A DNA stretch of 64,000 nt. Origin: Candidatus Oxydemutator sp. (GTDB taxonomy: Bacteria; Pseudomonadota; Gammaproteobacteria; Poriferisulfidales; Oxydemutatoraceae). How positions within the stretch are numbered: position 1 is the stretch's first letter; each line of letters starts with the position of its first letter. The notes under the pieces were generated by a model. The model saw nothing but the letters and a program-made list of their open reading frames with translations. It had not been told where the DNA came from and made no database searches. Positions 2,859 to 51,857 of the stretch are shown piece by piece. The position numbers were made by a program, and so were the translations under genes. The DNA lies in assembly GCA_965203445.1 (NCBI GenBank), contig OZ241883.1:1504001-1568000 (forward strand). The letters are read 5' to 3'.

Positions 2859-2865
2859 TCTCCTC

Positions 2866-4126: not shown

Positions 4127-4372
4127 ATGATGACGAGAATGTACACGCTCATTGCCGCGGCGCCGCTGGCCCTGATGGCGCTTTTCGGTTGTGCCGGCGA
4201 AGAAAGCGCGCACAAATGGCAAGCCACGATCTATGCGACTGGCGGCGACGAGGGTCAGATGCTGGGCCCGTTTGCCTCGCGCGAAGAATGTACCGAGGCT
4301 TCGATGCAGCATTTGGGCGCCGGCGACGGCCATGATCAGCCGATGGCCTTCGGTTGCGCGATGATGAAATAG
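4127..4372 (+). CDS. Small hypothetical lipoprotein (81 aa)
   Basis: TATAAT at 4091, AGGGAG SD, hydrophobic signal ending in lipobox-like LFGC, two further Cys. Confidence 0.6.
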   Translation: MMTRMYTLIAAAPLALMALFGCAGEESAHKWQATIYATGGDEGQMLGPFASREECTEASMQHLGAGDGHDQPMAFGCAMMK

Positions 4373-4415
4373 GCGCTCGTCGGCGACGCTCGTCGCCGTA
4401 CCTGATCGCCGGCCG

Positions 4416-5291: not shown

Positions 5292-5319
5292 TGTCCGATA
5301 TTCCGATATGATAAGGGTA

Positions 5320-6330: not shown

Positions 6331-6358
6331 CGGCGGTGCTGCGACCCGCCGCGGTTTT

Positions 6359-7624
6359 ATGGCCGACGCGAACGTAGGGGCGCGCTTGCGGGAGGTCGGC
6401 GAGGCCGCGAGGACTTGCGCCGCGATTATCGGCGCCGCCGACACCGCGCTCAAGAACCGCGCGCTGGACGAGATCGTCAAGCAGTTGCAGATGGCGCGCG
6501 CGCGCCTGCTCGGCGAAAACGAGAAGGACGTGCGCGCCGGGCGCAAGCGCGGCCTCGACGACGCGCTGCTCGACCGGCTCGAGCTGAACGACGCGCGCGT
6601 GGACGCGATGATGGACGGCGTGCGCCAGATAGCCGCGCTGCCCGATCCGGTCGGCGAGATCAGCGACGTGCGACCGCGGCCTTCGGGCATACACGTCGGG
6701 CACATGCGCGTGCCGCTGGGCGTGATCGGCGTCATCTACGAGGCGCGCCCCAACGTCACGGTGGACGCCGCGGCCTTGTGCCTGAAGTCGGGCAACGCGG
6801 CCGTTTTGCGCGGTGGTTCCGAGGCGATACACTCCAACCGCGCGATTGCCGCGTGCATAGAAAGCGGCCTCGAGCGGGCCGGGTTGCCGGCGGCCTGCGT
6901 GCAGGTCGTCAAGATCGCCGGGCGCGAGGCCGTCGGTGCGCTGCTGGCGTTAGACGAGTATATCGACGTCATCATCCCGAGGGGCGGCAAGGGACTGCTG
7001 CGGCGCGTCAAGGCCGAGTCGGCGATTCCGGTCATCCAGCACCTGGACGGCGTCTGCCACGTCTACGTGGACGACCGCGCCGATCGCGACATGGCGCTGG
7101 CCGTCGCCGAGAACGCAAAAGCGCAGCGCTTCGGCGTATGCAACGCGATGGAGACCTTGCTGGTCGCGGAGCGCGTCGCCGCCGATTTCCTGCCGCGTTT
7201 CGCCGCGCGCATGGAACGCCGCGGCGTCGCACTCAGGGGGTGCGAGCAGACGTGCCGCCTGCTGCCGGAGGCCGCGGCCGCCGGCGAGGATGACTGGGGC
7301 GCGGAATACCTGGCGCCGATCCTGGCCGTCAAGATAGTCGCCGGCCTCGACGAGGCCGTCGCCCACGTCGAACGCTATGGTTCGGGGCACACCGACGCGA
7401 TTGTCACCGGCGATTACGCGCGCGCGATGTATTTTTTGCGGCGCGTCAATTCGAGCTCGGTGCTGGTCAACGCCTCGACTCGCTTTTCCGACGGCTACGA
7501 GTACGGCCTGGGCGCGGAGATCGGCATCAGCACCGGCGTTTTGCACGTGCGCGGCCCGGTCGGGCTCGACGGGCTGACTACGCGCAAGTTCGTCGTTTTT
7601 GGCGACGGCCACGTGCGTGAATAG
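6359..7624 (+). CDS. proA: Gamma-glutamyl phosphate reductase
   Basis: [53 protein letters not shown]. Confidence 0.96.
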
Positions 7625-7650
7625 GGCGGCGCGGGAACCGGAGGTGCCTG

Positions 7651-8292
7651 GTGATCGCGGTCATGGGGGGCGTTTTCGACCCGGTCCATTTCGGCCACCT
7701 CAGGCCGGCCCTCGAACTGCTGGCGTGTCCGGAAGTCGCGCAGCTGCGTCTGGTGCCGTGTCGCGTGCACGCGGACAAGGCGCCGGCCGCGGCCGCGCCC
7801 GGTCATCGCTTGCGGATGCTCGAGCTGGTCGCGGGCGGCGGTCTGGCGGTGGATGCGCGCGAACTTGCGCGCGACGGCACGTCCTACACCGCCGACACGC
7901 TCGATCACCTGCGCGCCGAGGTCGGCGACGGGCAATCGCTGGCTTTCGTCGCGGGCCGCGACGTCGCGGCGCAGATCGCGGACTGGGAGCGCGCCGCGCG
8001 CTTGCCGCGCTTAAGCCATCTGATAGTGTTGGCGCGCCCGCGGTGCGGACGCGCCGCCGCGACGCGCGCGCCGTCGTTGCCGTGGCGCAACGCCCGCGAC
8101 TTGCGGGCGCTGGCGGCGCGCCCCGCCGGACTCGTGTATTTCATGCCCAATCGTTCGCTCGATATTTCCTCGACGACGATACGCGCGATGATCGGGCGTC
8201 GGCGCGAGCCGCGCTATCTGCTGCCGGGGGCGGTGTGGAATTACATCCGCCGCCACCGTCTTTACGGCTGGAACGACGCCGGTGAAGGCTGA
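7651..8292 (+). CDS. nadD: Nicotinate-nucleotide adenylyltransferase
   Basis: GGVFDPVHFGH, SYTADTL, ISSTTIR; lies between proA and rsfS. Confidence 0.92.
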   Translation: MIAVMGGVFDPVHFGHLRPALELLACPEVAQLRLVPCRVHADKAPAAAAPGHRLRMLELVAGGGLAVDARELARDGTSYTADTLDHLRAEVGDGQSLAFVAGRDVAAQIADWERAARLPRLSHLIVLARPRCGRAAATRAPSLPWRNARDLRALAARPAGLVYFMPNRSLDISSTTIRAMIGRRREPRYLLPGAVWNYIRRHRLYGWNDAGEG

Positions 8293-8608
8293 TCAACTGT
8301 GCCGCCTGGTGCTCGATTGCCTGGGTGACATGAAGGCGCGCGACGTGCTCGATCTCGACGTGCGCGGCAGAACGACGATCACCGACCACTTCATCATCGC
8401 CACCGGCACCTCGAGCCGCCACGCGCAGGCCGTGTCCGACCGCATCGTCGAGACCGCGCGCGAGCACGGCGTGCGCCCGCTGGGCGTCGAGGGCCGCGAC
8501 GCCGCCGACTGGATCCTGATCGACCTGGGCGACGTCGTCGTGCACGTGATGCAGGACGCCGCGCGCGGGTTTTACGATCTGGAGGAATTGTGGCGCGCCG
8601 CGATTTGA
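8282..8608 (+). CDS. rsfS: Ribosome silencing factor
   Basis: DMKARDV...IATGTSSRH, WILIDLGDVVVHVM, FYDLEELW. Confidence 0.95.
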   Translation: MKADQLCRLVLDCLGDMKARDVLDLDVRGRTTITDHFIIATGTSSRHAQAVSDRIVETAREHGVRPLGVEGRDAADWILIDLGDVVVHVMQDAARGFYDLEELWRAAI

Positions 8609-11600
8609 TCGCGGCGGCGCGCAAGGCGGCGTATCCGGCGCTGTGCGCGCTCGCCGCGGCACTGGTGCTGCTCGCCGCGCTGAGCGTCGCCGCGCGCTGG
8701 CTGCTGGCCGACGCCGACGACTACCGCGACGAATTCGCCGCCATCGTCGGCGACGCGCTCGGCGTCGAGCTCGAGGTCGCGGGGCTGCGCGCGCGTCCGC
8801 GCGGCCGCGGTTTGACGGTGACGGCGTCGGGGCTGGTGCTGCGCTCGGCGCCGCTGCCGATGTCAATGCGCGAGGCGACGGTCGAATTCGACCTGCTGCG
8901 GTCGCTGTTTTCGATGCGACCGCGGATCTCCGCGGTGCGCGCCGCGGGCGCCACTCTCGATCTCGCGGCCCCCGACGCGCGCCTGAGCGGCGCTCTGGTC
9001 GCCGCTCTGTTCGGCGACGACGGCGCCGGCGTCACGCCGCCGGACTTGTACATAGAGGACGCGCTCGTCCGCTGGCGCGATACCGTAACGGGCGAGACTC
9101 GCCGCTTTGAGAACGCGCGCTTTGCGCTGCACCGTACGGGATTCTCCGGCGGCGGTCTGCGCGCGCTCATCGAGACCGATCTGCCGCCCGCGCTTGGACG
9201 GCGGCTGCGCCTGGTCTTCGACGTCCCCGACGTCGCGGTCTCCGCTTCGGCGAGTTTTCACGCCGACCTCGACGCCGTCGAGATCGGCGGCGGCTGCGAA
9301 CTGGCGACGGGCGAGCGTTGCTGGGAGGGCCGGGTTTCCGGCAAGCTGTGGGGTGCCGTGGACCGCGGCGACGTGCGCCTCGGATGGTCCGAGGCGCTGC
9401 TGCAACCGGGCGCCGCGGACGCGCCGGCGTTTCCGCTCGGCGGCAACGCGCGGTGGTCCGGCGCGGGCCGACGCTCGTCGTTCGTATTGACGCTCGCGGA
9501 TTTGCCGCTGGCGCACGTTCCCGCCTGGTTGCCCGCGGAAACGCTGCCGCCGCGCTTTGCCGCGTGGCTGCGCCGTGCGCTGCGCGCCGGGCGCGTTGCG
9601 CGAGCGCGGGTGAGCTTTGCCGGGGCGCCGGCGGACTTTTCGTTCGTCGAAGACGTGCGCGTAAGCGCCGATATCACCGGCGCCGAGGTGGACTACCGCA
9701 AGGGTCGTCCGTCGTTGCGCGACGTCGACGCGAGGGTCGTTTTCGAGGGCGGCGCCTTGCGGGTGAGCGCCTCGCGCGTGCAAATCCTCGATACGCGTTC
9801 GGACCATGCGGTCGTCACTATCGCCGACGTGCGGCGGCCGTTGTTGTCGGTGGACGCGCGCGCGCGCGGGCCGCTGGCCGACGTGCTTTCGTATCTGCGC
9901 GTGATCGGGCTGTTCGATGCATACGGCGTGACCACCGCGCATCTGACCGCGAGTGGTGACAGCCGCTTGCGGCTGATCGTAAAAACCCCTCTCGACCGCG
10001 AGGTCGAGCACGCCACGCTGGTCGAGGGCACGCTCGATTTTGAAGGTTCGGGTCTGTCTTTTCCGGCGCTTCGATTCGGCTTCGACGACGTGCGCGGCAG
10101 CCTGGCGTTCGACCGCGACGGTGGCCGTGCCGACGAGATCGAGGCCGAATGGAGGAGCCACCCCGTCGCAATTCGCGCGCGCACCACGGACGGCGGCACC
10201 CTGGTCGCCGTCGGCGCGAAGTTCGCGCCGTACCCGGCGTTTGCCGACTTGGCGCCCGCGTTCGCGGATTTCGTCAGCGGCGAGGCGCGATGGAACGCCG
10301 AGGTGTTCATTCCGAATCCGGGCCGGCGCCCGGCGCCCGCGGGCGGCGCGACGTTCGGCGTGCGCCTGACGTCGGATCTGCGCGGCCTCGCCGTGGACCT
10401 GCCGTCGCCCCTCGGCAAGGGCGGCGGCGAGACGAGACCCCTTTTGTTCGAGACCGGTCTGGGGGCGTCGTCGTGGCGCGCCGCCTACGGCGGCCTGCAC
10501 GTGGCCTCGTCGGGCGTCGGCGCCGCGCGGCGGGGCGCGCTCGAACCGGCGGCGACGCTGAACGTGCGCGGCGTCGTCGAAGAGCGCACCGACTTCGGCG
10601 AGTGGATGCGGTGGTGGCGCATGCACGGGGACGACGTCGGCGACGGCGGGTTTGCGCCGCCCGAGGCATTGCACCTCGTCTTCCGACGCGCCGCCGTCGG
10701 CGGGGAGGCGCTCGGCACGATGGAGTTGAAGACCATGCGCGCGCGCGACGGGCAGTTGAAGTTGCACCTGGATTCGGCACCGATCCGGGGCGAAATGGCG
10801 TTTGCGAAGGCGGGCGCGACGGCGCCGCGCGTCTACGTGGATTTGGCGCGTCTGCACCTGACGGGAGCCATGTTCGAGGGGCCATCGTCCGAGTTGCCCG
10901 ATCCCGCGGCCCTGCCGCCGTTGGCGCTCAAGATCGGGGAGTTTCGGATGGACGGGATCGCGGCCGACGACTTGCGCGTGGTGACCAACCCGGCGGGGCC
11001 GGGCATGGAAATCTCGAAGGCGAGTTTTCGCAGTCTCGAAGACGGGCGGGCGATCACCGACGTCAGTCTCGCCGGCAGTTGGATCGGCGGCGACAATCCG
11101 CGCAGCGACGTCGAATTCAGTCTGGCGAGCGAGGATTACGGCAGCCTGTTGAGGCTGTGGGGTTTTCGCACCGGCCTGCGAGGGGGGCGCGGCGAGGTGC
11201 GCGGGCGCGTCGCCTGGAACGACGATCTGCCGCGTTTCGGCCTGGACAAGATCGAGGGCGACGTGGCCATCGCCCTGCGCGACGGCACCGTCGAGACGGT
11301 CGAGCCCGGCGTCGGCAAGCTGCTCGGTTTGTTGAACATCTCGGAGATCGCGCAGCGCTTCACGCTCGACTTCAGGGACGTCTTTAACAAGGGTCTCGTG
11401 TTCGAGGATCTGCGCGGCGACCTGTCCTTCGGCGGCGGCAACATGACGACCGACAATTTCACCGTCGAAAGCTCATCGCTCGACATGACCATCCGCGGGC
11501 GCACCGGCATCGCCGCGCGCGATTACGACCAGCGCATCGAGGTCGTGCCCCACGTCAGCACGGCCGTGCCGCTGCTGTCGGCGCTGGTCGCCGGCCCGGT

Positions 11601-12937: not shown

Positions 12938-13034
12938 TGCGTGTATCTGAAGATCGTCTTGGCAAAGCGAGAGACAACGCTTGCCTTCCCTGACGACCGA
13001 CGGATTTTACATTTTCAACCTGGGAGGAAATGGA

Positions 13035-14840
13035 ATGCAAGGGAAATCAACTTTTGCCTTGGTTTCAGCATTGGCGGCCATGGTCGCGTTTTCAACCGCG
13101 CAGGCAAACAGCAAACTGATGAGGATGTCCGAGGACGCCAATCAGTGGGTGATGCCGACGGGGAACTACGCCAACCACCGCTACTCGGAACTGAAGCAAA
13201 TCGATACCAAAAACGTCAAGAATCTGAAAGTCGCATGGACTTTCTCGACGGGCGTGCTTCGCGGACACGAGGGCAATCCTCTGGTCGTCGGAGACATGAT
13301 GTACGTTCATACACCGTTCCCGAACAAAGTGTTCGCGTTGGATCTTAGCAAAGACGCGAGCATAGTCTGGGAGTATCATCCGAAGCAGGACCCGGCGACG
13401 ATTCCGGTCATGTGCTGTGACACCGTCAACCGCGGCGTCGCCTATGCCGACGGCAAGATCTTCTTGTATCAGGCGGATGCGACGTTGGTCGCGTTGGACG
13501 CCAAGAGCGGCAAGAAGGTTTGGAGCGCCAGCAACGGCGACATCTCCAAGGGCCAAACCGGCACTTCGGCGCCTATGGTCGTCGCGGACAAAGTCTACGT
13601 CGGCATCAGCGGCGGCGAATTTGGCGTTCGCGGCCATTTGACCGCGTACGACACCAAAACCGGCAAGCAAGTCTGGCGCGGCTATTCGATGGGCCCCGAC
13701 TCCGATACCCTGATGGGAGCGGACACCACGCACCTCGGCAAGTCCGTGGGCAAGGATTCCGGTCTTACCACCTGGGAAGGAGATCAGTGGAAGATCGGCG
13801 GCGGCACGACCTGGGGCTGGTATTCGTACGACCCCGACCTGAACCTGGTGTACTACGGCACGGGCAACCCGAGCACGTGGAACCCGGTGCAGCGTCCCGG
13901 CGACAACCGCTGGTCCATGACCATCTTTGCGCGCGACGCCGACACCGGCCACGCCAAGTGGGTCTATCAGATGACGCCCCACGACGAGTGGGACTACGAC
14001 GGCATCAACGAGATGATCCTGGCCGACATCAAGGTGCGCGGCAAGGATCGCAAGGTGCTGGTGCACTTTGACCGCAACGGCTTCGCCTACACGATGGATC
14101 GGGTCTCCGGCGAACTGCTGGTCGCCGAGAAGTTCGACGACGTGGTCAACTGGGCGACCGGCATAGACATGAAGACCGGGCGTCCGATGATGGTCAACAA
14201 GTACCGCACCGAGTTCAACGGCGAGGACGTGCTGTCCACCGACATCTGCCCGGCCGCGCTGGGGACGAAAGACCAGCAGCCGGCGGCGTTTTCACCGATG
14301 ACCGGCCTGTTCTACGTGCCCACCAACCACGTGTGCATGAACTACGAGCCGTTCCGCGTCAGCTACACGGCGGGCCAGCCGTACGTGGGCGCCAACCTGG
14401 ACATGTTCCCGGCGCCGACCAAGCCCGGCGCCACTGATCGCGGCCCCCACATGGGCCGGTTCATCGCCTGGGACGCCGACAAAGGCAAGGAAGTGTGGGC
14501 GATAGACGAGAAGTTCTCGGTCTGGAGCGGCGCGCTTGCGACCGCCGGAGGCGTGGTCTTCTACGGTACGTTGGAGGGTCATCTGAAGGCGGTGGACGCG
14601 AACAGCGGCAAAGAGCTGTACAGCTTCAAGACCCCTTCCGGCATTATCGGCAACGTCATGACCTACATGCACGGCGGCAAGCAATACGTCGGTATCTATT
14701 CGGGTATCGGCGGTTGGGCCGGGATCGGCATGGCCGCGGGTCTGACCGGCGACCGCGACGGACTGGGTGCCGTGGGTGGCTACCGTCACCTGCAGAACTA
14801 CACCCGTCTGGGTGGTACTTTGATGGTCTTTTCGCTGTAA
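13035..14840 (+). CDS. xoxF: Lanthanide-dependent PQQ methanol dehydrogenase XoxF (probably XoxF5-type)
   Basis: Signal peptide, MCCDTVNRG vicinal disulfide, [21 protein letters not shown] with the extra Asp; no mxaI; SD GGGAGG. Confidence 0.96.
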
Positions 14841-14868
14841 GCTTGTAACTTGTAGCGTTGTGGTTAAC

Positions 14869-14908
14869 CAGCCCCCGGAGCGCTTGCGGTTCGGGGGCTG
14901 AATTTTTT
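14869..14908 (+). terminator. Rho-independent terminator/attenuator between xoxF and the cytochrome gene
   Basis: CAGCCCCCG...CGGGGGCTG stem followed by AATTTTTT. Confidence 0.75.
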
Positions 14909-14916
14909 GGAGACCG

Positions 14917-15396
14917 GTGTTTTCGAGGATACAGCAGGGCGTGTTGCGCACGCTTGCGGTGATCGCCTTCGCGGTTTTGCCGGCGGCGGCCGTGGGCGCC
15001 GATGCCGAGCAGCAGAAACCGTACCTGGTGCACGCCGACGGCAAGGTGAATTGGCCTACGTTCAGCGGCTACCGGCGCTATCACGCGGAGTGCCACGTCT
15101 GTCACGGGCCCGGCGGTCTGGGCAGTTCGTTTGCGCCCAATCTGCTGGATTCGATGAAAAATCTGAGTTACGAACAATATCTGGAAGTGGTCGTCAACGG
15201 CAGGGTCAACGTGGGCACCGCGGTACAAAACGTGATGCCGGGGTTTGCGACCAACTTGAACGTCATGTGTTTCGTGGACGACATCTACGCGTATCTGATG
15301 GCGCGCGCGGACGGCGCCATCGGCATGGATCGTCCAAAGCATACCGGCAAGCCGCCGCAGGCGAGGGAGCGCGAAAAAGCCTGTTTTGGCGATTGA
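14917..15396 (+). CDS. xoxG: Methanol-oxidation c-type cytochrome (XoxG/c553i-like, four-Cys type)
   Basis: Signal peptide, CHVCH heme motif, VMPGF, two extra Cys (MCFVDDIY, KACFG); lies between xoxF and xoxJ. Confidence 0.82.
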   Translation: MFSRIQQGVLRTLAVIAFAVLPAAAVGADAEQQKPYLVHADGKVNWPTFSGYRRYHAECHVCHGPGGLGSSFAPNLLDSMKNLSYEQYLEVVVNGRVNVGTAVQNVMPGFATNLNVMCFVDDIYAYLMARADGAIGMDRPKHTGKPPQAREREKACFGD

Positions 15397-33558: not shown

Positions 33559-35265
33559 TCAAGACCTCTTCAGCTTATACGCGATAATCTCGTTACCGCG
33601 TTTGTAGTCGAGCTGGACGTTGCCGCCGGCGCCGACGACGATGTACTGCTCGCCGTCGACGCTATACGAGGCGGGCGGTGCGTTGACGCCGGCCTTGGCT
33701 TTGTCCTGCCAGACCATCTGGCCGGTGGCCGAGTCGTAGGCGCGGAACATGCCGTTGCCCTCGCCGGTGAACACCAGGCCGCCGCCGGTGGCCAGGATGC
33801 CGCCGATCATCGGCTGCTCGGTCTTGACCTTCCACTTGATCTTGCCGGTGTTGTAGTCCACCGCGGTGACGTTGCCCCACTGCTGTTCCGACGGGATCAC
33901 CTTGAACGCGCCGCCCAGCCACAACTTGCCGCCGGGGTAGGGCGTCTCCTCGACGTGGTAGGTCATCGGCTGGTGCAGGTTGATCGCGTAGGTCAGTTGC
34001 AGGTGCGGGTCTATCGCCATCGGCGACCATTCGACGCCGCCGTTGGCGCCCGGCAGCATGCGCGCGCCTTCCTTGGTCGGCAGCACCCAGCGGTTTTCCT
34101 GCGACACCATCGGCTCCGAGAACCGGATCAGCGAGCAGTCGCTTGCGCGGTGGACGTAGACGTAGCCGGTCTTGCCCGCGTGCAGCACGCCCTTGACCAT
34201 GCGCCCGTCGTTGTCCTTGACCATCGTCAGGATCGGCGGGCTGACCGCGTCGAGATCCCAGACGTCATGGGCGATGTACTGAAAGTGGCACTGGTAACCG
34301 CCGCTGTCCAGGTCGACCGCGACCAGCGAGTTGGTGTACAGGTTGTCGCCCGGACGAATCGCGCCGTAGAGATCCGGCGACGGGTTGCCGACGACGAAAT
34401 AGACCATGTCGTTGGAACGATCCACGGCCATGTTCTGCCACACGCCGCCGCCGAGCGTCTTGTACGGGTCGCCGTTTTTCTCGAGCGTGGCTTTCTCGGC
34501 CTCGATGTCGCGGTGCATGTATTTGCCGGTGGCGTCGTGGGTCTCCCAGGTGCCGACCGAGTTCTCCGGCACCGTGTAAAACGTCCACAACAGGTCGCCG
34601 CTTTCGGCGTCGTAGGCCTTGACGAAGCCGCGGATCCCGTACTCGCCGCCGTTGGTGCCGATCAGCACCTTGCCGTCAACGACGGTGGGCGCCATCGTCT
34701 CGCTGTAGCCGAGTTCGGGGTCGGCGATCTGCGTCTCCCACACTTTCTTGCCGGTCTTGGCGTTGAGCGCCACCATTTTGGCGTCCAGCGTCCCCATGTA
34801 GAGCATGTCGCCGTAGGCGAACACGCCGCGGTTGTTGGGGCCGCAGCAGTAGGTCGTAACCGGCCCCATCTTGTGTTTGTAGTGCCAGAGCCTCTTGCCG
34901 GTCTTGGCGTCGAGCGCATAGACGTGGTTGTACGAGGTCGTTATATACATCACGCCGTCTATGATGATCGGCGTCGTCTCCAGCGACTCGACGACCTCGG
35001 TCCTGAAGACCCAGGCGCGCGCCAGACGGTGGACGTTGTCGCGGTTTATCTGGCGCGCCGGATAGTAGCGGGTTTGATCGTAGTTGCCGTTGGTGTGCAG
35101 AAAATTATTGGCGTCGCCGGCGGCGTGGTCCAACATGTCCTGGGTTACCGTGTGCATGTCGCCGTAGAGGGTGCCTTTGCCGGTCTCCTGGGCGAACGTC
35201 GCCGACGTCGCCAGCGCCGCCAGCGACGCGCCGAGCGCAAGCGCCTGGATGTGTTTTGTATTCAT
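33559..35265 (-). CDS. Second PQQ-dependent alcohol dehydrogenase family protein with a lanthanide-type D-x-D motif
   Basis: Signal peptide, [43 protein letters not shown]; SD AAGGAG. Confidence 0.9.
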
Positions 35266-35458
35266 CTTGTTGCTCCTTAAGAGTAAGTCATGAGTATGTC
35301 GTTTGTCGTGGTAGGCTTGCGGGCCGTAGTGGCAGACTTGCAGGCCATAAGACACATGATAGCAAATTGCGTCGGGTGGTAGGGAACCGTTCGCGGGAAC
35401 GGTGGAGCGGGGCGTGTTTGCCCAGCCCCATGCCATGCCCGTATTATGTTTGGGGACG

Positions 35459-43961: not shown

Positions 43962-44810
43962 CTACCCTCGCCTGCGGCGCGTCCCGAGCAGCCCGCGCGA
44001 CGGATCGTAGCCGTAGATCGCAAGCGCGATGAACAGCGCGGCCGTCGCCGTGACCACGACGAAGGCCTCGGCGCTGAACTCGGCGTAGAGGGAAAAGCGG
44101 ATCAACTCGACCGCGTGCGTGAACGGGTTGTACTGGCACACGTGGTAGAGCGCCACGCTCGACTCGCGGATGCGCCACAGCGGGTAGAGCGCCGACGACG
44201 TGAAGAACATCGGGAAGATGACGAAGTTCATGATGCCCGCGAAGTTTTCCAGCTGCTTGATGACCGACGACAGAAACAGTCCGAGCGAACCCAACATCAG
44301 CCCGGTCAAAAACAGCGCCGGCAGCAGCGCGACGTAGCCGGCCGGCGGCGGGCGCACGTCCCAGAACCACGCCACCAGCAGAAACACGTAGACTTGCAGC
44401 ACCGAGATCGAGGCGCCCGCAAACAGTTTGCTGAGCAGCAGATACCAGCGCGGCGCCGGACTCGTGAGCAGGATTCTCATGCTGCCCATCTCGCGGTCAT
44501 AGACCATGGACAGCGAAGTCTGCATGCCGCTGAACAACTGGATCATGCCGATCAGCCCGGGCGTGATGTATTCCTCGTAGAGCACGTAGGTCTGGTACGG
44601 CGGGGTGATCGAGACGCCGAGCACCGAGCGGAAACCGGCGGCGAAGATGAACAGCCACACCAGCGGGCGCACCAGCGCCGCGACGAAGCGCTCGCGCTGC
44701 TGGAGGAAACGCAGCAGCTCGCGCTGCATGATCCCCGCCGTGAAGTGGAAGAACGCGGCGGCCCCGTTGCGATGGCGCCCGCCGCGGCGTTCGGCGCCGC
44801 TCGTCGCCAC
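43962..44810 (-). CDS. PQQ-ADH-associated ABC permease (PedC/LutF-like)
   Basis: LVRPLVWLFIFAAGF, PPYQTY, SMVYDREMGSMR, QLENFAG.MNFVIFP. Confidence 0.9.
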   Translation of the reverse strand: MATSGAERRGGRHRNGAAAFFHFTAGIMQRELLRFLQQRERFVAALVRPLVWLFIFAAGFRSVLGVSITPPYQTYVLYEEYITPGLIGMIQLFSGMQTSLSMVYDREMGSMRILLTSPAPRWYLLLSKLFAGASISVLQVYVFLLVAWFWDVRPPPAGYVALLPALFLTGLMLGSLGLFLSSVIKQLENFAGIMNFVIFPMFFTSSALYPLWRIRESSVALYHVCQYNPFTHAVELIRFSLYAEFSAEAFVVVTATAALFIALAIYGYDPSRGLLGTRRRRG

Positions 44811-44811
44811 G

Positions 44812-45534
44812 CTACAGCAGCTGCGCCAGTTTGCGCCGCATCGGCGCCGCGTCGTCGTCGCCGGCGACGGCGCCGGCCCTGCCGGCCTTCGTCAGGCGCC
44901 CGCTTTTGAGCACCAGCAGCGCGTCGTCGGGGCCTACTTCGTCGAGCAGGTGCGTCGTCCACAACGCCGACAGGCCACGCGCGCACAAGCCGCGCACGTG
45001 CTCGATGAGCGCGCCGCGCCCGCCCACGTCGAGGCCGAACGTCGGTTCGTCCAGGATCAGCAGTTCGGGATGGTGCATCAGCGCGCGCGCAATCTCGACG
45101 CGCCGCGCCTGGCCGCCGCTCAGGTTGCGTATCTTGTCGTCCATGCGTTCGCGCACGCCGAGACGCTCGGTTTCCTCCATCGCGCGCGCGCGCGCCGTGC
45201 GCGCCGACATTCCGTAGAGATTCGCCGAGTAGCGCAGGTTCTGCCACACGCTCAGGTCCTGGTCGAGCGAGCGTTGTTGGAATACGACGCCCAGGCACCG
45301 CAGCGCGCGCGCGGGTCTTCTTCTCAGGTCGTGGCCGCAGATGGAGACGCGCCCGGCGTGGCTATGGTAGAGGCCGGTCAGCAGCGAGAACAGCGTCGTC
45401 TTGCCGGCGCCGTTGTTGCCGAGCAGCACCGCGAACGTGCCGCGCGCGACCGTGAAGTCCACCGAGTCGAGTGCGCGGAACTTGCCGTAGCGGTGGCCTA
45501 AGCCGGCGACCGCCAGGGCCGCTTCGTCAGCCAT
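44812..45534 (-). CDS. PQQ-ADH-associated ABC ATPase (PedB/LutE-like)
   Basis: GNNGAGKTTLF, VFQQRSLD, LSGGQARRVEIARA, LWTTH. Confidence 0.9.
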   Translation of the reverse strand: MADEAALAVAGLGHRYGKFRALDSVDFTVARGTFAVLLGNNGAGKTTLFSLLTGLYHSHAGRVSICGHDLRRRPARALRCLGVVFQQRSLDQDLSVWQNLRYSANLYGMSARTARARAMEETERLGVRERMDDKIRNLSGGQARRVEIARALMHHPELLILDEPTFGLDVGGRGALIEHVRGLCARGLSALWTTHLLDEVGPDDALLVLKSGRLTKAGRAGAVAGDDDAAPMRRKLAQLL

Positions 45535-46516
45535 CGGCGCGCGCCACGACGCCCCACGGATAGCGCCCTACCGCCACCGACTTGATGACGCGCAGATTGT
45601 CGGCGTCTATGACCGAGACGTCGTTGCTGACGCCGTTGGTCGTGTACAGCCTCTTCTGGTCCGGGGAGAACGCCAGCTGCCACGTGCGGGCGCCGACCAG
45701 CAGGTATTTCTCGACCTCGAAAGTTTTGGCGTTGATGACCGCGACGCGGCTCGCCGGGCCCAGGGCCACGAAGGCGCGCCGGCCGTCGCCGCTCAGGCGC
45801 ACGCCGACCGGCTGTATGGATTCGGCCTTGACCCCGGGCAGCGCGAACGAGATTGTTTTCGCGACCTTGCGCGTGTGCGTCTCGATCACGCTGACGGTGC
45901 CTCCGACCTCGGCGGTGACCCACACGTGTGCGCCGTCGCGGGTGAACTCGGCGAAACGCGGACGGCTGCCCACCAGCACGTTGTCGAACACCTCGAGCGT
46001 CAGCGTGTTGATGAAGTGCGCCATGTTGGTCGTCTCCGACGTGTTCACCAGGGTCTTGCCGTCGGGGCTGACGGCCATGCCCTCCGGTTCGACGCCGACC
46101 GGAATCTCCTTGACGATGCGCTTGCGCGCGACGTCTATCACCGAGATCATGTTGTCGTCCTCGTTGGCGACGTAGATGATCGAACCGTCCGGCGACAGCG
46201 TCATCAGCTCGGGATCGGGGCCCGACGGCAGCAGGCCCGTGATCCTGCCGCTCTCCAGGTCGAGCACCTGGATCTGGTCGTCGTCGCTGGCGCAGATGTA
46301 GAGCAGCTTGTGGTCCTTGCTGAGGGCGATGCCGCGCGGGCGTTGTCCGACCTTGATCAAGTCCACCGTCTCGAGCGTGTCGCCGTCTATGACGCTGATG
46401 GTGTTGTCCTTCTCGTTCGACACGTACACCGTGTGCGCGGCCGGCGCCGGCACCGCCGCGATCAGTGCCGCGCCGAGCGCGACGCGCAATAGTTTGTCGC
46501 CGTTTCCGATCTTCAC
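45527..46516 (-). CDS. PQQ-catabolism-associated YVTN beta-propeller (PedA2/LutB-like)
   Basis: YVSNEKDN, GQRPRG, LPSGPDPE, ANEDD, GVEPEG, TSETT, YTTNGVSND. Confidence 0.9.
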   Translation of the reverse strand: MKIGNGDKLLRVALGAALIAAVPAPAAHTVYVSNEKDNTISVIDGDTLETVDLIKVGQRPRGIALSKDHKLLYICASDDDQIQVLDLESGRITGLLPSGPDPELMTLSPDGSIIYVANEDDNMISVIDVARKRIVKEIPVGVEPEGMAVSPDGKTLVNTSETTNMAHFINTLTLEVFDNVLVGSRPRFAEFTRDGAHVWVTAEVGGTVSVIETHTRKVAKTISFALPGVKAESIQPVGVRLSGDGRRAFVALGPASRVAVINAKTFEVEKYLLVGARTWQLAFSPDQKRLYTTNGVSNDVSVIDADNLRVIKSVAVGRYPWGVVARADG

Positions 46517-46604
46517 GTTGTCCCCCGTCGTTTGATAATCGGTCGTTTGAAAAGGGAATTATATACATCCTCCCCCGCGCAAGCGGGGGATTATAGGCGT
46601 GCGT

Positions 46605-47792
46605 TTATCTTTCATCGAGTTCGCAGCGCGTTTCCGGGCGGTCGTAGCCCAGCGTGTCGAGCGGCGAGTGCTGATGCAGAAATTGTTGCTGCGGCGACAC
46701 CGATACCAGCGACGTCGGCGACACCAGTAGTAGCGGCTGGCGCAGCTGTAGATTCCATTTGCGAAAGGACATTTTCTGCCCCTTGTAGCCGGCCAGCTCG
46801 AACGCGTCGCCGCGCACGTAGGCCGCGATTTTGCCGTCGTCGGTCGCGCCGGCGCGCGTCACCGCCTCGCCGATGGTGCGCATCGCCGACCACACGCCGT
46901 AGTCTTTCTCCGACATGCGCCGCCCGTAGTTCTTCAGAAAGCGGCTCTGAAGCTGCGCCGCGCCCCATTGCTCGTGGGCGCGGTGCCAGGTCACCGGCGC
47001 CAGCCCCTGGGTGCCGGCCACCGGGCGCGGCTGCCACGTGCGGTAGGCCAGGTATTCGCCGAACTCGCCGACCGCGTCGGCGACGATGAGCACGTCGTAG
47101 TCCGCGTCCTGCGTGAACAGCGGCACCGTCGAGGCCGCGGTGCGCCGTGCGTCGGGTCCGTACTCCCATTGCTTGTCGGCGACGACGTGCCCGCCGAATT
47201 TCTTTGCCGCGCGGCGCACCGCGGCGGCGAAGCCACGGTCGGCGCGACGCCGCCCGACGACCAGGAACCAGCGCCGCCACTTCTTCGCGATCAGGTACTG
47301 CGCCAGCGCGTCGGCGCGCATCGAGTGGCTGGGTACCAGGTGCAGCACGTTGGCGCGACAGTCGCGCGTGCGCAGCGCGTCGTCACCGGAACCGACGTTG
47401 TAGAACCACGATTGCCGCCCGTTCTCCGAATCGGCCAGGGCCAGCAGGTCGGCGGCCGGGACGTCGACGATGAACTGGCGCGTACCGCCCGCGTGCAGCC
47501 CGCGGAACGCCTCCTGCACGTCGTCTTCCTCGTCCAGCACCACGGTCTCGAGTCGGTAGTCGTGGCCGAGAAAGCGCCCGGTGGTGTTGTTGTCTTCGAC
47601 GCCCTGGCGCCCGCCGAGCGCGCCGTCGTCGGCCGGTGGCGGGTCGAGATTCGACAGTTTCGGCAGCTTCTCGACTTCCTTTTTGAGGAACGTGACGCTT
47701 ACCGTGTCGACGCCCGCGGCCATGCCCGCGGCGAGGCACAGCGGTGCCACAAGCCACGGCGCGCGGCGCGTCACGCGGGGCCGCGCCGCCAT
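46605..47792 (-). CDS. PQQ-ADH-associated ABC substrate-binding protein (LutA-like)
   Basis: DNNTTGRFLG, MRADALAQYL..KKW, DAVGEFGEY, RPVAG, HEQWGA.QLQSRF, SPQ..FLH....LDTLG.D.PE..C. Confidence 0.88.
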   Translation of the reverse strand: MAARPRVTRRAPWLVAPLCLAAGMAAGVDTVSVTFLKKEVEKLPKLSNLDPPPADDGALGGRQGVEDNNTTGRFLGHDYRLETVVLDEEDDVQEAFRGLHAGGTRQFIVDVPAADLLALADSENGRQSWFYNVGSGDDALRTRDCRANVLHLVPSHSMRADALAQYLIAKKWRRWFLVVGRRRADRGFAAAVRRAAKKFGGHVVADKQWEYGPDARRTAASTVPLFTQDADYDVLIVADAVGEFGEYLAYRTWQPRPVAGTQGLAPVTWHRAHEQWGAAQLQSRFLKNYGRRMSEKDYGVWSAMRTIGEAVTRAGATDDGKIAAYVRGDAFELAGYKGQKMSFRKWNLQLRQPLLLVSPTSLVSVSPQQQFLHQHSPLDTLGYDRPETRCELDER

Positions 47793-48373
47793 GTTTCCGC
47801 CAGCGGTTTTCTCGGCGACGGCTTTTCACCCGCGGCCAGATCCGCGGCGAGGCGCCCGGGCGGCGCGATTTCGCCGAGCGCAAAGCCGCAGATAACCCGG
47901 TATTTTTCCGCGTCGACGCGGAGCGCCGGACATACCTCATCGCGCTTGATTCCGCCCATGCCGTGGGTGTAAAGGCCAAGACGCCGCGCTTGCAGCGTCA
48001 GCGCCATCCACGCCGCGCCGCAGTCGAACGCCGCGGTCGCGTTCGGCTTGCCGTTGTGTTCGAAGTTTTTGCGCGCGAACACGAAGCCCAGCAGCGACGC
48101 GGTGCGCGCCCACCGCTGGTTGCCTTCGGTCAGCAGGTTCAGAAAAACGTCGAAGTCCGACGCGCCGCTCGAGGTGACGAACAACCACGGCTGATCGTTG
48201 CGGCTCGACGGCGACCAGCGCGCCGCGTCGAAAATCACGCGCAGCGTCTCCTCCGGCAACTCGCGTCTGGTGAACGAGCGCGGCGACCAGCGCCGGTAGA
48301 ACAGCGCGTCGGCGACGGCGTCGCCGACGCGTTCGCCGTAGTCAACCTCATAGGGAGTCGTAAATTTTTTCAT
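47771..48373 (-). CDS. Nitroreductase family protein
   Basis: RRWSPRSF, AARWSPSSRNDQPW, FDCGAAW, HGMGG; 3' end overlaps the LutA-like start. Confidence 0.9.
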   Translation of the reverse strand: MKKFTTPYEVDYGERVGDAVADALFYRRWSPRSFTRRELPEETLRVIFDAARWSPSSRNDQPWLFVTSSGASDFDVFLNLLTEGNQRWARTASLLGFVFARKNFEHNGKPNATAAFDCGAAWMALTLQARRLGLYTHGMGGIKRDEVCPALRVDAEKYRVICGFALGEIAPPGRLAADLAAGEKPSPRKPLAETWRRGPA

Positions 48374-48445
48374 CGGGCGGCTATTATATATGGGCGCGCC
48401 GGCGCCGGTTTGGAGGCGCCCGCTTGTGATAGTATCCGACACGTC

Positions 48446-49216
48446 ATGGAGCGGTCGTTTGATTTCAGCACCGGCGCCGGCGCCGGCGGCGCCTCGTCGT
48501 CGCGCCTGCACGCGCCCGCGCGCGCGCCGTTCCTGCAATGGCTCATTTTCGCCTTCGTGCTCGCGTTCATCACGTGGCTGGCGTGGAAGCACGGGCTGGT
48601 GCAGGAGATTATCCGCACCGACCCGACCAAGCTGTCGGTCGTTATCTCGTTGATCTTTATCGGCGGCACCATCCACTGCGCGTTGCGCAGCGTGTTCCTT
48701 GCGGCGCAGCTCGACGAACTGCGCGAGATCAGCGCGGGCGCGCGGATGCTGGGCTTCGACGGCGCGCGCCTGTCGCTCGCCGGGCGCGTACTCGCGTCGT
48801 CGCCGGTATCCGATTACCTCGCCGGCGTCTTCCGCTGCCGCGAGCACGGCGGCGACGGCGACCGCCGCCAGTGGTCGCGCTTCGACGAGGTGTTCGCCGA
48901 GGAAGTCGCCGGCGCCCACGCCACCGGTTGGTTCTTCGCGCAGCTGCTGGTCAAACTGGGGTTGCTCGGCACCGTCGTCGGCTTCATCCTGATGCTGTCC
49001 TCGATCACCGGCGCGTCGTCGTTCGACCCGGAGCACGCGCACGAGTTGTTCAGCGAGATGACGCGCGGCATGAGGGTCGCGCTCAACACGACGCTGGTCG
49101 GACTGCTCGGCACGATGCTGCTCGGCTTTCAGTACCTGCTGCTCGACCGCGCCGCCGACCGCTTGATCGCCGGCGCCGCGCGTTTCGCCGAGAGCCACTC
49201 GTTCGGCGTTCGGTAG
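48446..49216 (+). CDS. MotA/TolQ/ExbB ion-channel family protein
   Basis: About 4 TM segments with LGLLGTVVGF and GMRVALNTTLVG signature helices. Confidence 0.88.
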   Translation: MERSFDFSTGAGAGGASSSRLHAPARAPFLQWLIFAFVLAFITWLAWKHGLVQEIIRTDPTKLSVVISLIFIGGTIHCALRSVFLAAQLDELREISAGARMLGFDGARLSLAGRVLASSPVSDYLAGVFRCREHGGDGDRRQWSRFDEVFAEEVAGAHATGWFFAQLLVKLGLLGTVVGFILMLSSITGASSFDPEHAHELFSEMTRGMRVALNTTLVGLLGTMLLGFQYLLLDRAADRLIAGAARFAESHSFGVR

Positions 49217-49220
49217 CGAC

Positions 49221-49835
49221 GTGGCGCTCAGACGAAAAACGAGGGCCGACGCGATAGACCCTTTCACCGACCTGCTGTTCAACGTGCTGCTGATCTTTAC
49301 GTTCCTGTTCCTGATCGCGATCGTGTTCATGAACCCGCCGGCCAAGACCGGCGCGGTTGATCTCAAGGCCGAGTACATCGTAACCGTCCAGTGGCCCGAC
49401 CACAGCCCCGACGACGTGGATACCTGGGTGCGCGATCCCGACGGCAGGATCATCTGGTTCCGCAACACCGAGGACGGTTTCATGCACCTGGATCGCGACG
49501 ACCGCGGCGCCTCGAACGACACCATCCGCGTCGACGGCGAGGACGTCGTCAACCCGCTGAACCAGGAGGTCATCACGATACGCCGCCTGGTGCCCGGCGA
49601 GTACACCGTCAACCTGCACTACTACAAGTCGCTGTCGAACCAGCCGGTCACGGCCGAGGTCAGCGTGGCGCGCGTCAACCCGTCGCTCGAGGTCGTGTTC
49701 TACGGCAAGGTGGCGCTCGAGAAAGCGGGCGTCGAGCGCACCGCGGTGCGCTTTCGCGTCGCCAGAGACGGCGACGTAACCGACGTCAACACGCTGCCGA
49801 TGGCGCTCGTCAGCGTCGCGGCCGAGGAGCAATGA
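49221..49835 (+). CDS. Single-pass partner with ExbD/TolR-like Asp helix and a YfaP/DUF2135-like periplasmic domain
   Basis: DPFTDLLFNVLLIF TM helix; DDVDTWVRDPDG, LDRDD, NQEVITIR...GEYTVNLHYY. Confidence 0.75.
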   Translation: MALRRKTRADAIDPFTDLLFNVLLIFTFLFLIAIVFMNPPAKTGAVDLKAEYIVTVQWPDHSPDDVDTWVRDPDGRIIWFRNTEDGFMHLDRDDRGASNDTIRVDGEDVVNPLNQEVITIRRLVPGEYTVNLHYYKSLSNQPVTAEVSVARVNPSLEVVFYGKVALEKAGVERTAVRFRVARDGDVTDVNTLPMALVSVAAEEQ

Positions 49836-50347
49836 GCGCCGGCGTCGTCGGTATCACCGTGGCCTACGTGGCCCTTGCGGTGCTGTTGCTGAGCTTGAAC
49901 GTCTATTCGCGCTGGCCGGCGTGGGTCAAGATCGGCGCGGTGGCGTTGACCGGCGCCTTGTATTACGTAACCTACCTGTCGTTCGGTTCCTTTCTCGGCT
50001 GGCCGGCGCACGCCCAGCTGCCGCAGAAGTTCATGATGCTGGCCGGCAGCATAGACGAACCGAACGAGCAGACCGGCGAGCGCGGCGCCATCTACATCTG
50101 GGCCGTGTCGCTGGAGCGCGACCGCCTGGCCGACGCCCCGCGCGCCTACCGCGCGGCGTATTCGCGGCAGTTGCACGAGCAGGTCGGCGCCGCCAAAAAA
50201 CAGTTGCGCAACGGCATCGTGCAGGTCGGCGAGGTCGAGGAGGTCTCGGCGAAGCGCGCGCGCGGCTTGGCCGGCCTGTGGGCCGACGATAACGTGTCGC
50301 GCATCGTGATATACGACCTGCCCGATCCCGAGCTGCCCGACAAATGA
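49832..50347 (+). CDS. Hypothetical two-TM membrane protein
   Basis: Two hydrophobic helices, GWP, EP, IYIW, PRAY, C-terminal LPDPELPDK; ATGA coupling on both sides. Confidence 0.75.
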   Translation: MSAGVVGITVAYVALAVLLLSLNVYSRWPAWVKIGAVALTGALYYVTYLSFGSFLGWPAHAQLPQKFMMLAGSIDEPNEQTGERGAIYIWAVSLERDRLADAPRAYRAAYSRQLHEQVGAAKKQLRNGIVQVGEVEEVSAKRARGLAGLWADDNVSRIVIYDLPDPELPDK

Positions 50348-51078
50348 CGTCGAATCGCGCGCTGCCCGCGGGCCGGCCCTGGCCGTCGCTGCTGCCGCTG
50401 TTGTTGTTGGTAGGGTGCGTCGCAAGCGCCTGCCGCCCGGAGGCGCCGCGCGGTTATTTCCCGCTCAACGAAGGGCTGGCCTGGAGTTACAAGGTCACGA
50501 AGACGACGCCCTACAAACGCGACGTAAGCGCGTTGCGAATCGAAAACCTCGGCACGCGGCGCGTCGACGGCGAACTCCACCACGTGCGCAAGACCGACAG
50601 CGGCAATTTCTATTACCTGCAACGAATAGACGAGGGCATCGTGCGCACGACCAAGCGCACCCTGATCGAGAAACGCCCGCGGCGCGTCGCGTATGATCGC
50701 TTCGTGCTGAAGTATCCGCTTGCGCCCGGCACGCGCTGGTCGTACCCGGTCAAGCCGTATCTGCTGGCGCGCCCGTTCCCCGAGGAAGTCGAGCTGAAGC
50801 GCGCGTTCGACTACGAGATGGATTGGCGCATCGTCGCCGACGGCGACACCGTCGAGGTGCCGGCGGGGCGCTTCGAGCGCTGCCTGCACGTGCGCGGCGA
50901 GGCGCGCGTAGAGGTCGCGCGCAGCCTGAGCATCGCCCGCGATACGGTCACGTTCAGGACCGATGAGTGGTATGCTCCGGACGTCGGCCTGGTATTGTTG
51001 GAACACGCCGAGATCGTGGATTCCAACCAGGCCTACGGGGGTTCCATCACGATGAGTCTGACCGGGTTTTCCCATTGA
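50344..51078 (+). CDS. Hypothetical lipoprotein (YFPL..G..W.Y / V.VPAG.F..C / WYAP.VG family)
   Basis: Signal peptide with Cys; beta-rich mature region. Confidence 0.75.
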   Translation: MTSNRALPAGRPWPSLLPLLLLVGCVASACRPEAPRGYFPLNEGLAWSYKVTKTTPYKRDVSALRIENLGTRRVDGELHHVRKTDSGNFYYLQRIDEGIVRTTKRTLIEKRPRRVAYDRFVLKYPLAPGTRWSYPVKPYLLARPFPEEVELKRAFDYEMDWRIVADGDTVEVPAGRFERCLHVRGEARVEVARSLSIARDTVTFRTDEWYAPDVGLVLLEHAEIVDSNQAYGGSITMSLTGFSH

Positions 51079-51857
51079 TGCGCCCACTGATGCGCCCATT
51101 GACGCGCCCACTGACGCGCATGGCGGCGCACAAGTTCGCACCGAAGGCGCGCGCGTGGTCGCAGGCGGCGTTGGCGGCCGCGCTTGCGGCCGGTTGCGCG
51201 TCGGAGATGACCGTCGAGCAGGCGCAACAACGCCTGGCGGCGTCGTTTCCGAACGTCCGCGTCGAGCGCGTGCAACCGTCGCCGATGTCCGGAGTCTATG
51301 AGGTCGTAGCCGACGGCAGCGTCTATTACCTGACGCACGACGGCGCCTTCCTGCTTACGGGCACGCTGTATGACCTTACCGCCAACGTCAACCTGACCGA
51401 GCGCTCGAAGAACGAGCTGCGCAGCGCCGCCGCGCGCCGCGTCAGCGCCGACGACGTCATCACCTACGCCCCGACCACCGGGCGTTACACGGTCACCGTG
51501 TTCAGCGACGTCGACTGCCCGTATTGCCGCAAGTTTCACGCCCAGATGGAGCGCGTACACGCGCTCGGCATTCGCGTCCGTTATCTGCTGGCGCCGTATC
51601 GCGGCCAACGGGCGCACCGCAACGCCGTCGCGGTATGGTGTTCCGCCGACCGTCGCGCCGCGTTTGACCGCGCCAAGCAGGGTGTCGCGGTCGCCGCCGA
51701 AGACTGCGACCATCCGGTGGATCGCAACCTGCGCCTGGCCGAGACGCTCGGCGTGCGCGGCACGCCCGCTTTCCTGCTCGAGAACGGCGAGCTGCTGAAC
51801 GGCTATCGCACCCCCGAAAATCTGCTCGAGGAAGTCAAGCGCGCCGCCGCGCGTTGA
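51078..51857 (+). CDS. dsbC: DsbC-family thiol:disulfide isomerase (alternative start 51120)
   Basis: SP..G.YEV dimerisation domain, FSDVDCPYCRK, VWC, GVRGTP, GY. Confidence 0.88.
   Translation: MRPLMRPLTRPLTRMAAHKFAPKARAWSQAALAAALAAGCASEMTVEQAQQRLAASFPNVRVERVQPSPMSGVYEVVADGSVYYLTHDGAFLLTGTLYDLTANVNLTERSKNELRSAAARRVSADDVITYAPTTGRYTVTVFSDVDCPYCRKFHAQMERVHALGIRVRYLLAPYRGQRAHRNAVAVWCSADRRAAFDRAKQGVAVAAEDCDHPVDRNLRLAETLGVRGTPAFLLENGELLNGYRTPENLLEEVKRAAAR

Follow-up and report, generated by a model that had tools for sequence, protein, structure and literature searches.

A candidate ion-driven motor variant with a TerD-like head, shared by bacteria and phages and linked in one clade to quinoprotein genes

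Ion-driven motors of the 5:2 kind power flagella, Ton and Tol transport, gliding and type 9 secretion, and Zorya defence. In MotAB/PomAB and ZorAB a four-helix A subunit is combined with a B subunit that carries an Asp helix, and in ExbB-ExbD(-TonB) and TolQ-TolR(-TolA) a MotA_ExbB-family gene is followed by a small partner with a cytoplasmic N-terminus and an Asp helix, and then by a third membrane-anchored protein. A locus of similar build is found in Candidatus Oxydemutator sp. (assembly GCA_965203445.1), in a 64,000-nt stretch of contig OZ241883.1 (1,504,001-1,568,000, forward strand) that is called the window below and whose coordinates are used throughout. Five genes, g1 to g5, occupy positions 48446-51857, and an earlier sequence-only reading had taken them for a candidate undescribed motor operon of five genes, possibly in the service of lanthanide or pyrroloquinoline quinone (PQQ) acquisition. 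The analysis presented here places the weight on the first three genes, the g1-g2-g3 trio, which is probably (at roughly 0.55) a mobile variant of the 5:2 kind of ion-driven motor, adopted in one clade by the PQQ alcohol dehydrogenase system.

TolQ-like rings with Asp-helix partners other than ExbD have a precedent in the TPH-vWA/TolQ-like motors put forward by an in-silico study (PMC12204202, Mol Biol Evol 2025). These systems resemble the trio in pairing a TolQ-like gene with a non-ExbD partner that has a TolR/ExbD-like trans-pore helix (TPH) with a conserved Asp and a head domain of a metal-dependent type, and they differ in their vWA head and heterologous partner pairs, whereas the trio has a TerD-like head and a single partner gene that is always followed by the two-helix protein g3. 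A survey of MotAB relatives (PMC12505986) mentions that various DUFs are appended to "generic ion transporters". In the main text of both articles TerD, DUF2135 and PQQ are absent as words, and in the literature outside subscription journals and supplements no paper was found that connects TerD, DUF2135 or PQQ/lanthanide genes with a protein of the MotA/ExbB/TolQ type, nor one that describes the trio in phages. With regard to the neighbourhood, the adjacent operon in the window consists of the same NCBIfam families as the PedA1A2BC/LutAEF ATP-binding cassette (ABC) transporter with its LutB propeller (PMC6839425, 10.1101/647677). Mutants in lutA, lutB, lutE, lutF as well as lutG affect lanthanum-dependent growth in M. 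extorquens, and the lut genes named in the available portion of that work are binding, periplasmic, ATPase and membrane components, with no mention there of a MotA-like trio (10.1101/647677).

The channel subunit g1 is, as judged from its profile matches, a divergent MotA/ExbB/TolQ-family protein. It matches the Pfam family MotA_ExbB (PF01618) over residues 171-241 with 31.6 bits against a cut-off of 22.9, and orthologues in six other loci score 28-41 bits. The LGLLGTV.G and AL.TT..G helices pointed out in the sequence-only reading are present, as LGLLGTVVGF and ALNTTLVGL, and are essentially invariant; in an alignment of 21 orthologues G172, L173, G175, G179, F180, A212, L213, T215, T216, G219 and L220 do not vary and T176 is kept in at least 90%. 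The conserved Gly/Thr positions of this helix pair presumably line the ion path, as they do in the Ton/Tol/Mot literature. The last two helices, whose motifs are common to g1 and ExbB/TolQ, align with transmembrane (TM) helices TM2-TM3 of the TolQ of the same genome (hhalign, E 0.0013). Four TM helices are predicted in all, two N-terminal and two C-terminal, in a MotA-like layout with a short linker that was read from the sequence; ExbB and TolQ differ from this in that g1 has the two N-terminal helices and almost no cytoplasmic domain.

None of Pfam, NCBIfam, PADLOC and PHROGs contains a family for the partner g2. Its N-terminus is basic, as in ExbD, TolR and MotB, and is predicted to be cytoplasmic; a single TM helix (residues 14-37) follows, carrying Asp17 within the motif PFTDLL. 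Conservation agrees with the proposal of an Asp helix of the ExbD/TolR type: at least 90% of the 117 diverse homologues retain D17, as do all 15 distant homologues and both Rhizobium phage versions examined; the residue also aligns with the Asp of TolR, if weakly (E 0.03). A model built from the 117-homologue alignment (mean predicted local distance difference test, pLDDT, 91.8) consists of helix 14-37 and a beta-sandwich at about residues 50-190, and this head, predicted to be periplasmic, begins about 12 residues past the helix, nearly on the membrane.

In the model the g2 head is a TerD-like beta-sandwich. The five best Foldseek matches are TerD-type chains (E 1e-4 to 1e-3), and VIA-align superposes the head on TerD chain 2qz7_B with Z 9.9 (root-mean-square deviation 3.7, 131 residues aligned) and on 2kxt with Z 9.1 (133 residues), the next fold reaching Z 6.1. 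Identity to TerD is 10-15%, no sequence-level match between the two was found, and no TerD profile stands among the best 25 of the 50 families listed for the 117 members. TerD proteins are soluble and cytoplasmic, whereas the g2 domain is membrane-anchored and predicted to be periplasmic. The sequence-only reading had held the domain to be neither ExbD-like nor OmpA-like, and this agrees with the searches: the window protein has no ExbD/TolR (PF02472) match in Pfam, OmpA was found neither for g2 nor among the best 25 of the 50 families listed for its homologues, and none of the 50 structural matches listed for the all-beta model is an ExbD/TolR chain. The predicted TerD-like sandwich would set the g2 head apart from the ExbD/TolR fold. 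Weak DUF2135/YfaP (PF09906) matches in 10 of the 117 homologues (best E 0.00045) and weak PPC matches in nine agree with the further suggestion of a YfaP/DUF2135-like domain; TerD is the best structural match, and the window protein itself has no DUF2135 match in Pfam. Among the 117 homologues W58, D65, D67, D93, G96 and E116 are invariant and D94 and D100 nearly so. The TerD family (2qz7, 2kxt, 2qng, 3ibz), which comprises tellurite-resistance proteins, has Asp-rich conserved loops in common with the g2 head, and the title of entry 2kxt is on calcium binding by TerD. Judged from fold and conservation together, the acidic cluster of g2 would most likely bind metal ions of the Ca2+ type.

The third protein, g3, is likewise without a family in Pfam, NCBIfam, PADLOC or PHROGs. 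An alignment of 45 homologues gives two TM helices with a basic loop (SRW...K) between them, an invariant GWP after TM2 and a small alpha/beta domain, which the positive-inside rule would place in the periplasm. At the C-terminus stands a conserved DLPxPxLPxK, its invariant Lys last or next-to-last in the 45 homologues; this end resembles a docking peptide and is disordered in the model (pLDDT 70.9), for which all 50 matches of the fold search covered the N-terminal helical hairpin (residues 1-55) only. In contrast to TonB and TolA, g3 is a two-TM protein that lacks any proline-rich or long helical stretch reaching across the periplasm.

The three genes go together almost without exception. 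Counts were made with hidden Markov models (HMMs) from alignments of the families themselves and on loci whose contig reaches far enough, kin among them being not independent and the loci having been sampled with family motifs. On these terms g1 immediately precedes g2 in 37/37 genome, 49/50 metagenome and 75/75 viral-contig loci, and g3 lies downstream of it in 37/37, 58/59 and 77/79, respectively; one locus has no g1 and three have g3 shifted by 1-2.4 kb. In-frame g1-g2 fusions were found in P0312-P0314 (singletons) and P0158, a further candidate, P0315, being rejected as frameshifted. The gene order recurs in about 200 independent loci, which is far beyond chance, and the gene neighbourhoods make the g1-g2-g3 trio, not five genes, the apparent unit. 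The claim of a five-gene motor operon accordingly had to be given up, as only g1-g3 are universal, and what stood of the proposed undescribed pair is a MotA/ExbB-type channel with an Asp-helix partner of non-canonical head, to which a third conserved membrane protein is added. The lipoprotein g4 was found by tblastn in gamma- and betaproteobacterial PQQ-linked relatives only and is missing from alphaproteobacterial loci, and the DsbC-type g5 in the closest gammaproteobacterial relatives only. Both were rejected as core parts, being absent from most lineages, and seem from this distribution to be lineage-specific additions.

The family extends far beyond the bacteria in which PQQ genes are close by. 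A word-indexed search returned 3608 g2 relatives at E <= 0.001, "hypothetical" or nameless save one YfaP, and there are 1786 representatives at 50% identity; the name YfaP occurs in one JGI name ("YfaP (DUF2135 family)") and in one Atlas cluster name. Viral contigs of IMG/VR hold at least 271 relatives. The motif MHLDRDDL retrieved distant ones, mostly on low-GC contigs, where a terminase of the T4 type, nucleases (HNH and ERCC4), sigma factors, a phage metallopeptidase, a peptide deformylase and an amidase are among the neighbours. Matches in cultured phages amount to 25 records, all of them Rhizobium phages, and RHph_I1_18 and RHph_N3_19 have a complete mini-trio whose genes are all annotated as hypothetical. 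Its mini-MotA protein has 113-147 amino acids (HMM E 1e-6 to 1e-10) with little beyond the helix pairs, and its two-TM protein matches g3 weakly in one of the two phages. In PHROGs neither g1-g4 nor two metagenome trios matched any family, save for one match to a family of unknown function (E 0.00018). The best reading of these gene neighbourhoods is that the trio is a self-contained mobile module of many bacteria and phages.

In the window the trio stands in a quinoprotein island with two PQQ dehydrogenases, pqqBCDE, a SoxYZ-like quinoprotein carrier, an aldehyde dehydrogenase and cytochrome c550. Next after the PQQ alcohol dehydrogenase comes a c-type cytochrome described as "methanol metabolism-related" (TIGR03874; the pair spans 12981-15396), and the dehydrogenase has the DYD motif that is taken here to mark lanthanide-dependent XoxF/ExaF/PedH enzymes; no DYD-type motif was found in the second dehydrogenase by a simple pattern search. 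Close loci (n = 40, 51-86% identity to g2) were scanned over 6-kb flanks, and 31 of them have a PQQ-system gene within that distance, while six of the nine without one are contigs shorter than 7 kb. The PQQ-linked trio occurs in alpha-, beta- and gammaproteobacteria in three different arrangements. In gammaproteobacterial loci it is divergent from the ABC operon, as in the window, and in Burkholderiales loci it is co-directional with it; in Ideonella paludis a packed operon runs ATPase, propeller, binding protein, permease, g1, g2, g3, g4, the permease/g1 junction being an ATGA overlap. The carriers that share one operon between trio and ABC transporter include the strains Ideonella paludis KCTC 32238 and Caldimonas tepidiphila YIM 730274. 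Alphaproteobacteria and Granulosicoccaceae have pqqBCE, a SoxYZ-like carrier, a PQQ dehydrogenase and pentapeptide or YNCE-propeller genes near the trio. A Sel1-repeat gene directly 5′ of g1 is a further feature of the alphaproteobacterial and Granulosicoccaceae loci that the window does not share.

Distribution across genomes and the g2 phylogeny define the extent of this link. Among 401 sampled Pseudomonadota genomes g2 was found in 17 and a PQQ alcohol dehydrogenase in 118; all 15 strong g2 matches are in dehydrogenase-positive genomes, in four families only, and two weak, distant matches (G161 and G260) are in genomes that lack the enzyme. In a FastTree phylogeny of 118 distinct g2 domains (without rows that cover under 150 profile positions and without exact duplicates), all PQQ-linked loci form one clade that is nested among metagenome and phage versions. 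PQQ-system genes occur in only one of 80 metagenome loci, 29 of which measure 8 kb or more. L134 is the sole metagenome locus of low GC that encodes both a binding protein of the PQQ type and a propeller; it splits off basally in the PQQ-linked clade, and its propeller is 62% identical to that of the window. On this contig (GC 0.29; 362-4452) the two genes are divergent from the trio, as in the window. Taken from gene neighbourhoods and tree, the PQQ link is judged to be real but clade-specific. The earlier proposal of lanthanide or PQQ service is therefore upheld as regards gene linkage in three proteobacterial classes, and it did not hold as a general role: the trio is common in phages and occurs in genomes without PQQ alcohol dehydrogenase, therefore it is not specific to lanthanide/PQQ biology, and its core function must be generic. 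Service of the trio to quinoprotein or lanthanide handling within this clade is plausible from its genomic setting.

The mechanism that would fit these observations begins with g1 as the ring-forming channel subunit of an inner-membrane motor of the MotAB/ExbBD/TolQR kind and g2 as its axle, the single helix bearing the ion-binding Asp, so that a 5:2 assembly would be driven by ion flow. The g2 head would be a membrane-proximal TerD-like sandwich binding metal ions of the Ca2+ type, and g3 an obligatory third membrane subunit whose small periplasmic domain may receive the motion or hold the g2 head. In the clade of this genome the trio would work with the PedABC/LutAEF-type ABC transporter and the beta-propeller, with g4 lipoprotein and DsbC as local additions, and would probably serve a membrane-proximal step, dependent on the proton-motive force, in the supply of metal or cofactor to periplasmic quinoproteins. 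The earlier ideas of g3 as the transducer and g4 as the envelope partner are conjectural. A more definite version, in which paired g2 heads bind Ln3+ or Ca2+, rotate as ions pass through the g1 ring and hand the metal on between the transporter with its propeller and the PQQ dehydrogenases, so that lanthanide or calcium cofactor would be supplied in an energy-coupled way, is doubtful. The variations on it are just as speculative, namely that the heads strip metal from a carrier instead, that neither ATP nor TonB is needed, and that the phage engine has a different cargo.

Several observations weigh against a recruited motor. The family score of g1 is low and its cytoplasmic part very small. 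An ExbD match appears in four of the 117 g2 homologues (weak, best E 0.001, below cut-off) and a MotB_plug match in two (weak, E 0.055), and a search of the g2 alignment against the PDB gave nothing significant, the best value (0.0015) falling on a 30-residue repeat. Metal binding by g2 is suggested only by fold and acidic conservation, and phage versions keep the acidic cluster equally, therefore the cluster is not lanthanide-specific. The predicted 1:1:1 complex of g1, g2 and g3 scored 0.00 against a mark of 0.32, a run made without controls that counts neither way. As to the PQQ side, the trio is present in only 15 of the 118 genomes with PQQ alcohol dehydrogenase and is therefore accessory; the g2 tree is midpoint-rooted and was read without support values; for the clade members L069, L071, L074, L017/L036 and L040 the stretch examined contains no PQQ gene; and some clade members adjoin Ser/Thr kinase, FHA or two-component genes instead. 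In L036 (Piscinibacter aquaticus KACC 15278, 6001-6600) the g2 open reading frame as called has just 113 amino acids, tblastn similarity continues to about 6597 with lower identity than in the relative L017, and the gene may be frameshifted.

The best-surviving alternative, although unlikely, is that the trio is a module for a generic task of the envelope or of ion flux, mechanistically unconnected with quinoproteins, which does a single housekeeping job at the inner membrane, for example one for controlled flow of protons or cations or for local remodelling of membrane and periplasm that is useful to phages and cells alike, and that the PQQ neighbourhood reflects co-regulation or hitch-hiking in an island. 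The viral-contig relatives, the Rhizobium phage records with their full mini-trio, the phage-type neighbours (terminase, HNH, sigma factors), the scarcity of PQQ-system genes in metagenome loci and the distant trios of G161 and G260 all speak for it, but hitch-hiking alone would hardly yield a linkage that recurs in three proteobacterial classes with differing gene orders, a trio translationally coupled to the permease gene of Ideonella, and the grouping of the PQQ-linked loci in one clade.

The kinase, FHA and two-component neighbours hint at a signalling use of the trio in the lineages concerned. In L069 a Ser/Thr protein kinase gene lies 3′ of the trio (5246-6685), with histidine kinases and response regulators also around; in L074 a 500-residue FHA-domain protein is encoded 3′ of it (6136-7638), together with a sigma-54 two-component pair; and in L018 the trio is flanked by histidine kinases and response regulators (2164-4244 and 7187-9536). 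These neighbours are what a metal-gated sensor would lead one to expect, in which Ca2+ or Ln3+ on the TerD-like head gates the channel and kinases or two-component systems read the flux or movement and control quinoprotein expression. This explanation is improbable, however, for no regulator adjoins the trio in the window or in the beta- and gammaproteobacterial operons, the phage copies have none, and we know of no precedent for a MotA-type complex that feeds a kinase.

A role in phage-bacterium conflict (defence, superinfection exclusion or counter-defence) after the manner of Zorya would accord with the frequency of the trio in phages and with the best, if weak, named matches of g1, which are ZorA models; TerD-family genes, moreover, occur in operons reported to affect phage and colicin sensitivity. 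The match to NCBIfam ZorA (NF033915) is 17.4 bits, far below the cut-off of 100, and the PADLOC ZorA match (E 1e-4 to 8e-3) covers the MotA core only. Zorya itself was rejected for the trio on account of these scores and of the missing ZorC/D: g1 lacks the long ZorA tail, PADLOC has no match for g2-g5, and no ZorC/D-like or nuclease gene is nearby, the absence of a Zorya effector having been seen already in the sequence-only reading. The window, furthermore, is the context of a metabolic operon and not a defence island, which leaves a conflict device very improbable. Equally far-fetched is that g1 is a degenerate MotA-like scaffold and the trio a static membrane complex or simple channel, which the low family score, minimal cytoplasmic domain and short phage versions of g1 might suggest, because the ion-path residues of Ton/Tol/Mot (the Thr helix pair and the partner Asp) are exactly the invariant ones.

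The recruited motor variant would also differ from the classical systems. The trio lacks the OmpA-type peptidoglycan-binding domain, the plug and the FliG-facing cytoplasmic domain of MotAB/PomAB, and no TonB-dependent receptor or Pal/TolB partner, as found with Ton/Tol, is near it. No TonB_C, ExbD or further MotA_ExbB match was found within the window, in keeping with the statement that no TonB is nearby. Elsewhere in the genome, which is complete at 2.38 Mb, there are TolQ-TolR, ExbB-ExbD with TonB adjoining and a TolA-like match; TonB_C matches occur at 2179370 (beside ExbBD) and 1172278 (Tol locus) only, and the genome has four TonB-dependent receptors, none in the window. The idea that the trio acts in place of a TonB-LutH system is contradicted by this TonB, ExbBD, TolQR(A) and receptor complement. 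A further MotA_ExbB-family gene (54 bits) lies outside the window at G000:C1:1869263-1869607.

The trio would add to the 5:2-type motors a compact and very widespread member, with 1786 clusters at 50% identity and hundreds of viral contigs, and what would be new is the kind of output domain, g2 and g3 being nameless in Pfam, NCBIfam, PADLOC and PHROGs. Its recruitment to PQQ/lanthanide alcohol oxidation in three proteobacterial classes suggests that an energy-dependent step in the periplasm is still missing from the picture, in a field, lanthanide trafficking, that is still poorly understood. The trio is present in the cultured and harmless hosts Ideonella paludis and Caldimonas tepidiphila and in cultured Rhizobium phages, and is therefore directly testable.

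Table 1. Coordinates of the features discussed (window coordinates, or those of the locus named)
Feature	Coordinates	Strand	Description
g1, 256 aa	48446..49216	+	Divergent MotA/ExbB/TolQ-family channel subunit (predicted); ATG start, TAG stop
g2, 204 aa	49221..49835	+	Asp-helix partner with predicted TerD-like head; GTG start
g3, 171 aa	49832..50347	+	Putative third membrane subunit, 2 TM helices
g4, 244 aa	50344..51078	+	Lipoprotein, lipobox LVGC, DUF3108-like (sub-threshold)
g5	51078..51857	+	DsbC-type periplasmic disulfide isomerase, CPYC motif
Divergent intergenic region, 72 bp	48374..48445	.	Between g1 and nitroreductase-ABC operon; sequence read directly
Nitroreductase-family gene	47771..48373	-	PF00881, 64.6 bits; first gene of divergent operon
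PQQ-alcohol-dehydrogenase-system ABC set	43962..47792	-	Four NCBIfam models above curated cut-offs
ABC binding protein	46605-47792	-	TIGR03863, 474.6 bits (cut-off 413.6)
YVTN beta-propeller	45527-46516	-	TIGR03866, 497.3 bits (cut-off 287.3)
ABC ATPase	44812-45534	-	TIGR03864, 304.9 bits (cut-off 302.25)
PedC-type permease	43962-44810	-	TIGR03861, 401.3 bits (cut-off 241.35)
PQQ alcohol dehydrogenase	12981-14840		TIGR03075, 770 bits; DEWDYDG motif
Second PQQ dehydrogenase	33559-35436	-	461.6 bits, below family cut-off 480
Sel1-repeat gene	L031, L035, L012, L018, L020: ~4480-5310 in each
RHph_I1_18 mini-trio	L160: 2944-4417		Mini-MotA, g2 homologue with Asp helix, 2-TM protein
RHph_N3_19 mini-trio	L161: 3071-4447		Mini-MotA, g2 homologue with Asp helix, 2-TM protein

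The gene structure of the locus is as first described. The g1/g2 junction is a 4-nt gap (CGAC), g2/g3 and g3/g4 are ATGA overlaps and g4/g5 is TGATG with a one-base overlap, all confirmed on the sequence. The 72-bp gap said to separate the locus from a divergent lanthanide ABC operon is exact, but the gene that faces g1 across it is the nitroreductase-family gene, which stands first in the PQQ-type ABC operon and shares an overlap with the gene that follows; a simple scan of the gap found no sigma-70 consensus. The nitroreductase-family gene has an 80% identical orthologue at the equivalent position in the closest relative, L001, and tblastn found none in the other loci. With regard to the two accessory genes, g4 scores 25.1 bits against PF21347 (DUF3108_like), below the cut-off of 27, and has weak PDB sequence matches to 4fvs and 3fzx, a "putative lipoprotein". 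The g5 protein matches DsbC_N (PF10411, 71.4 bits) and Thioredoxin_2 (PF13098, 73.1 bits) above their cut-offs and NCBIfam DsbC with 159 bits, below the equivalog cut-off of 215. On the 3′ side of g5 lie pgi, on the minus strand, and then ppc.

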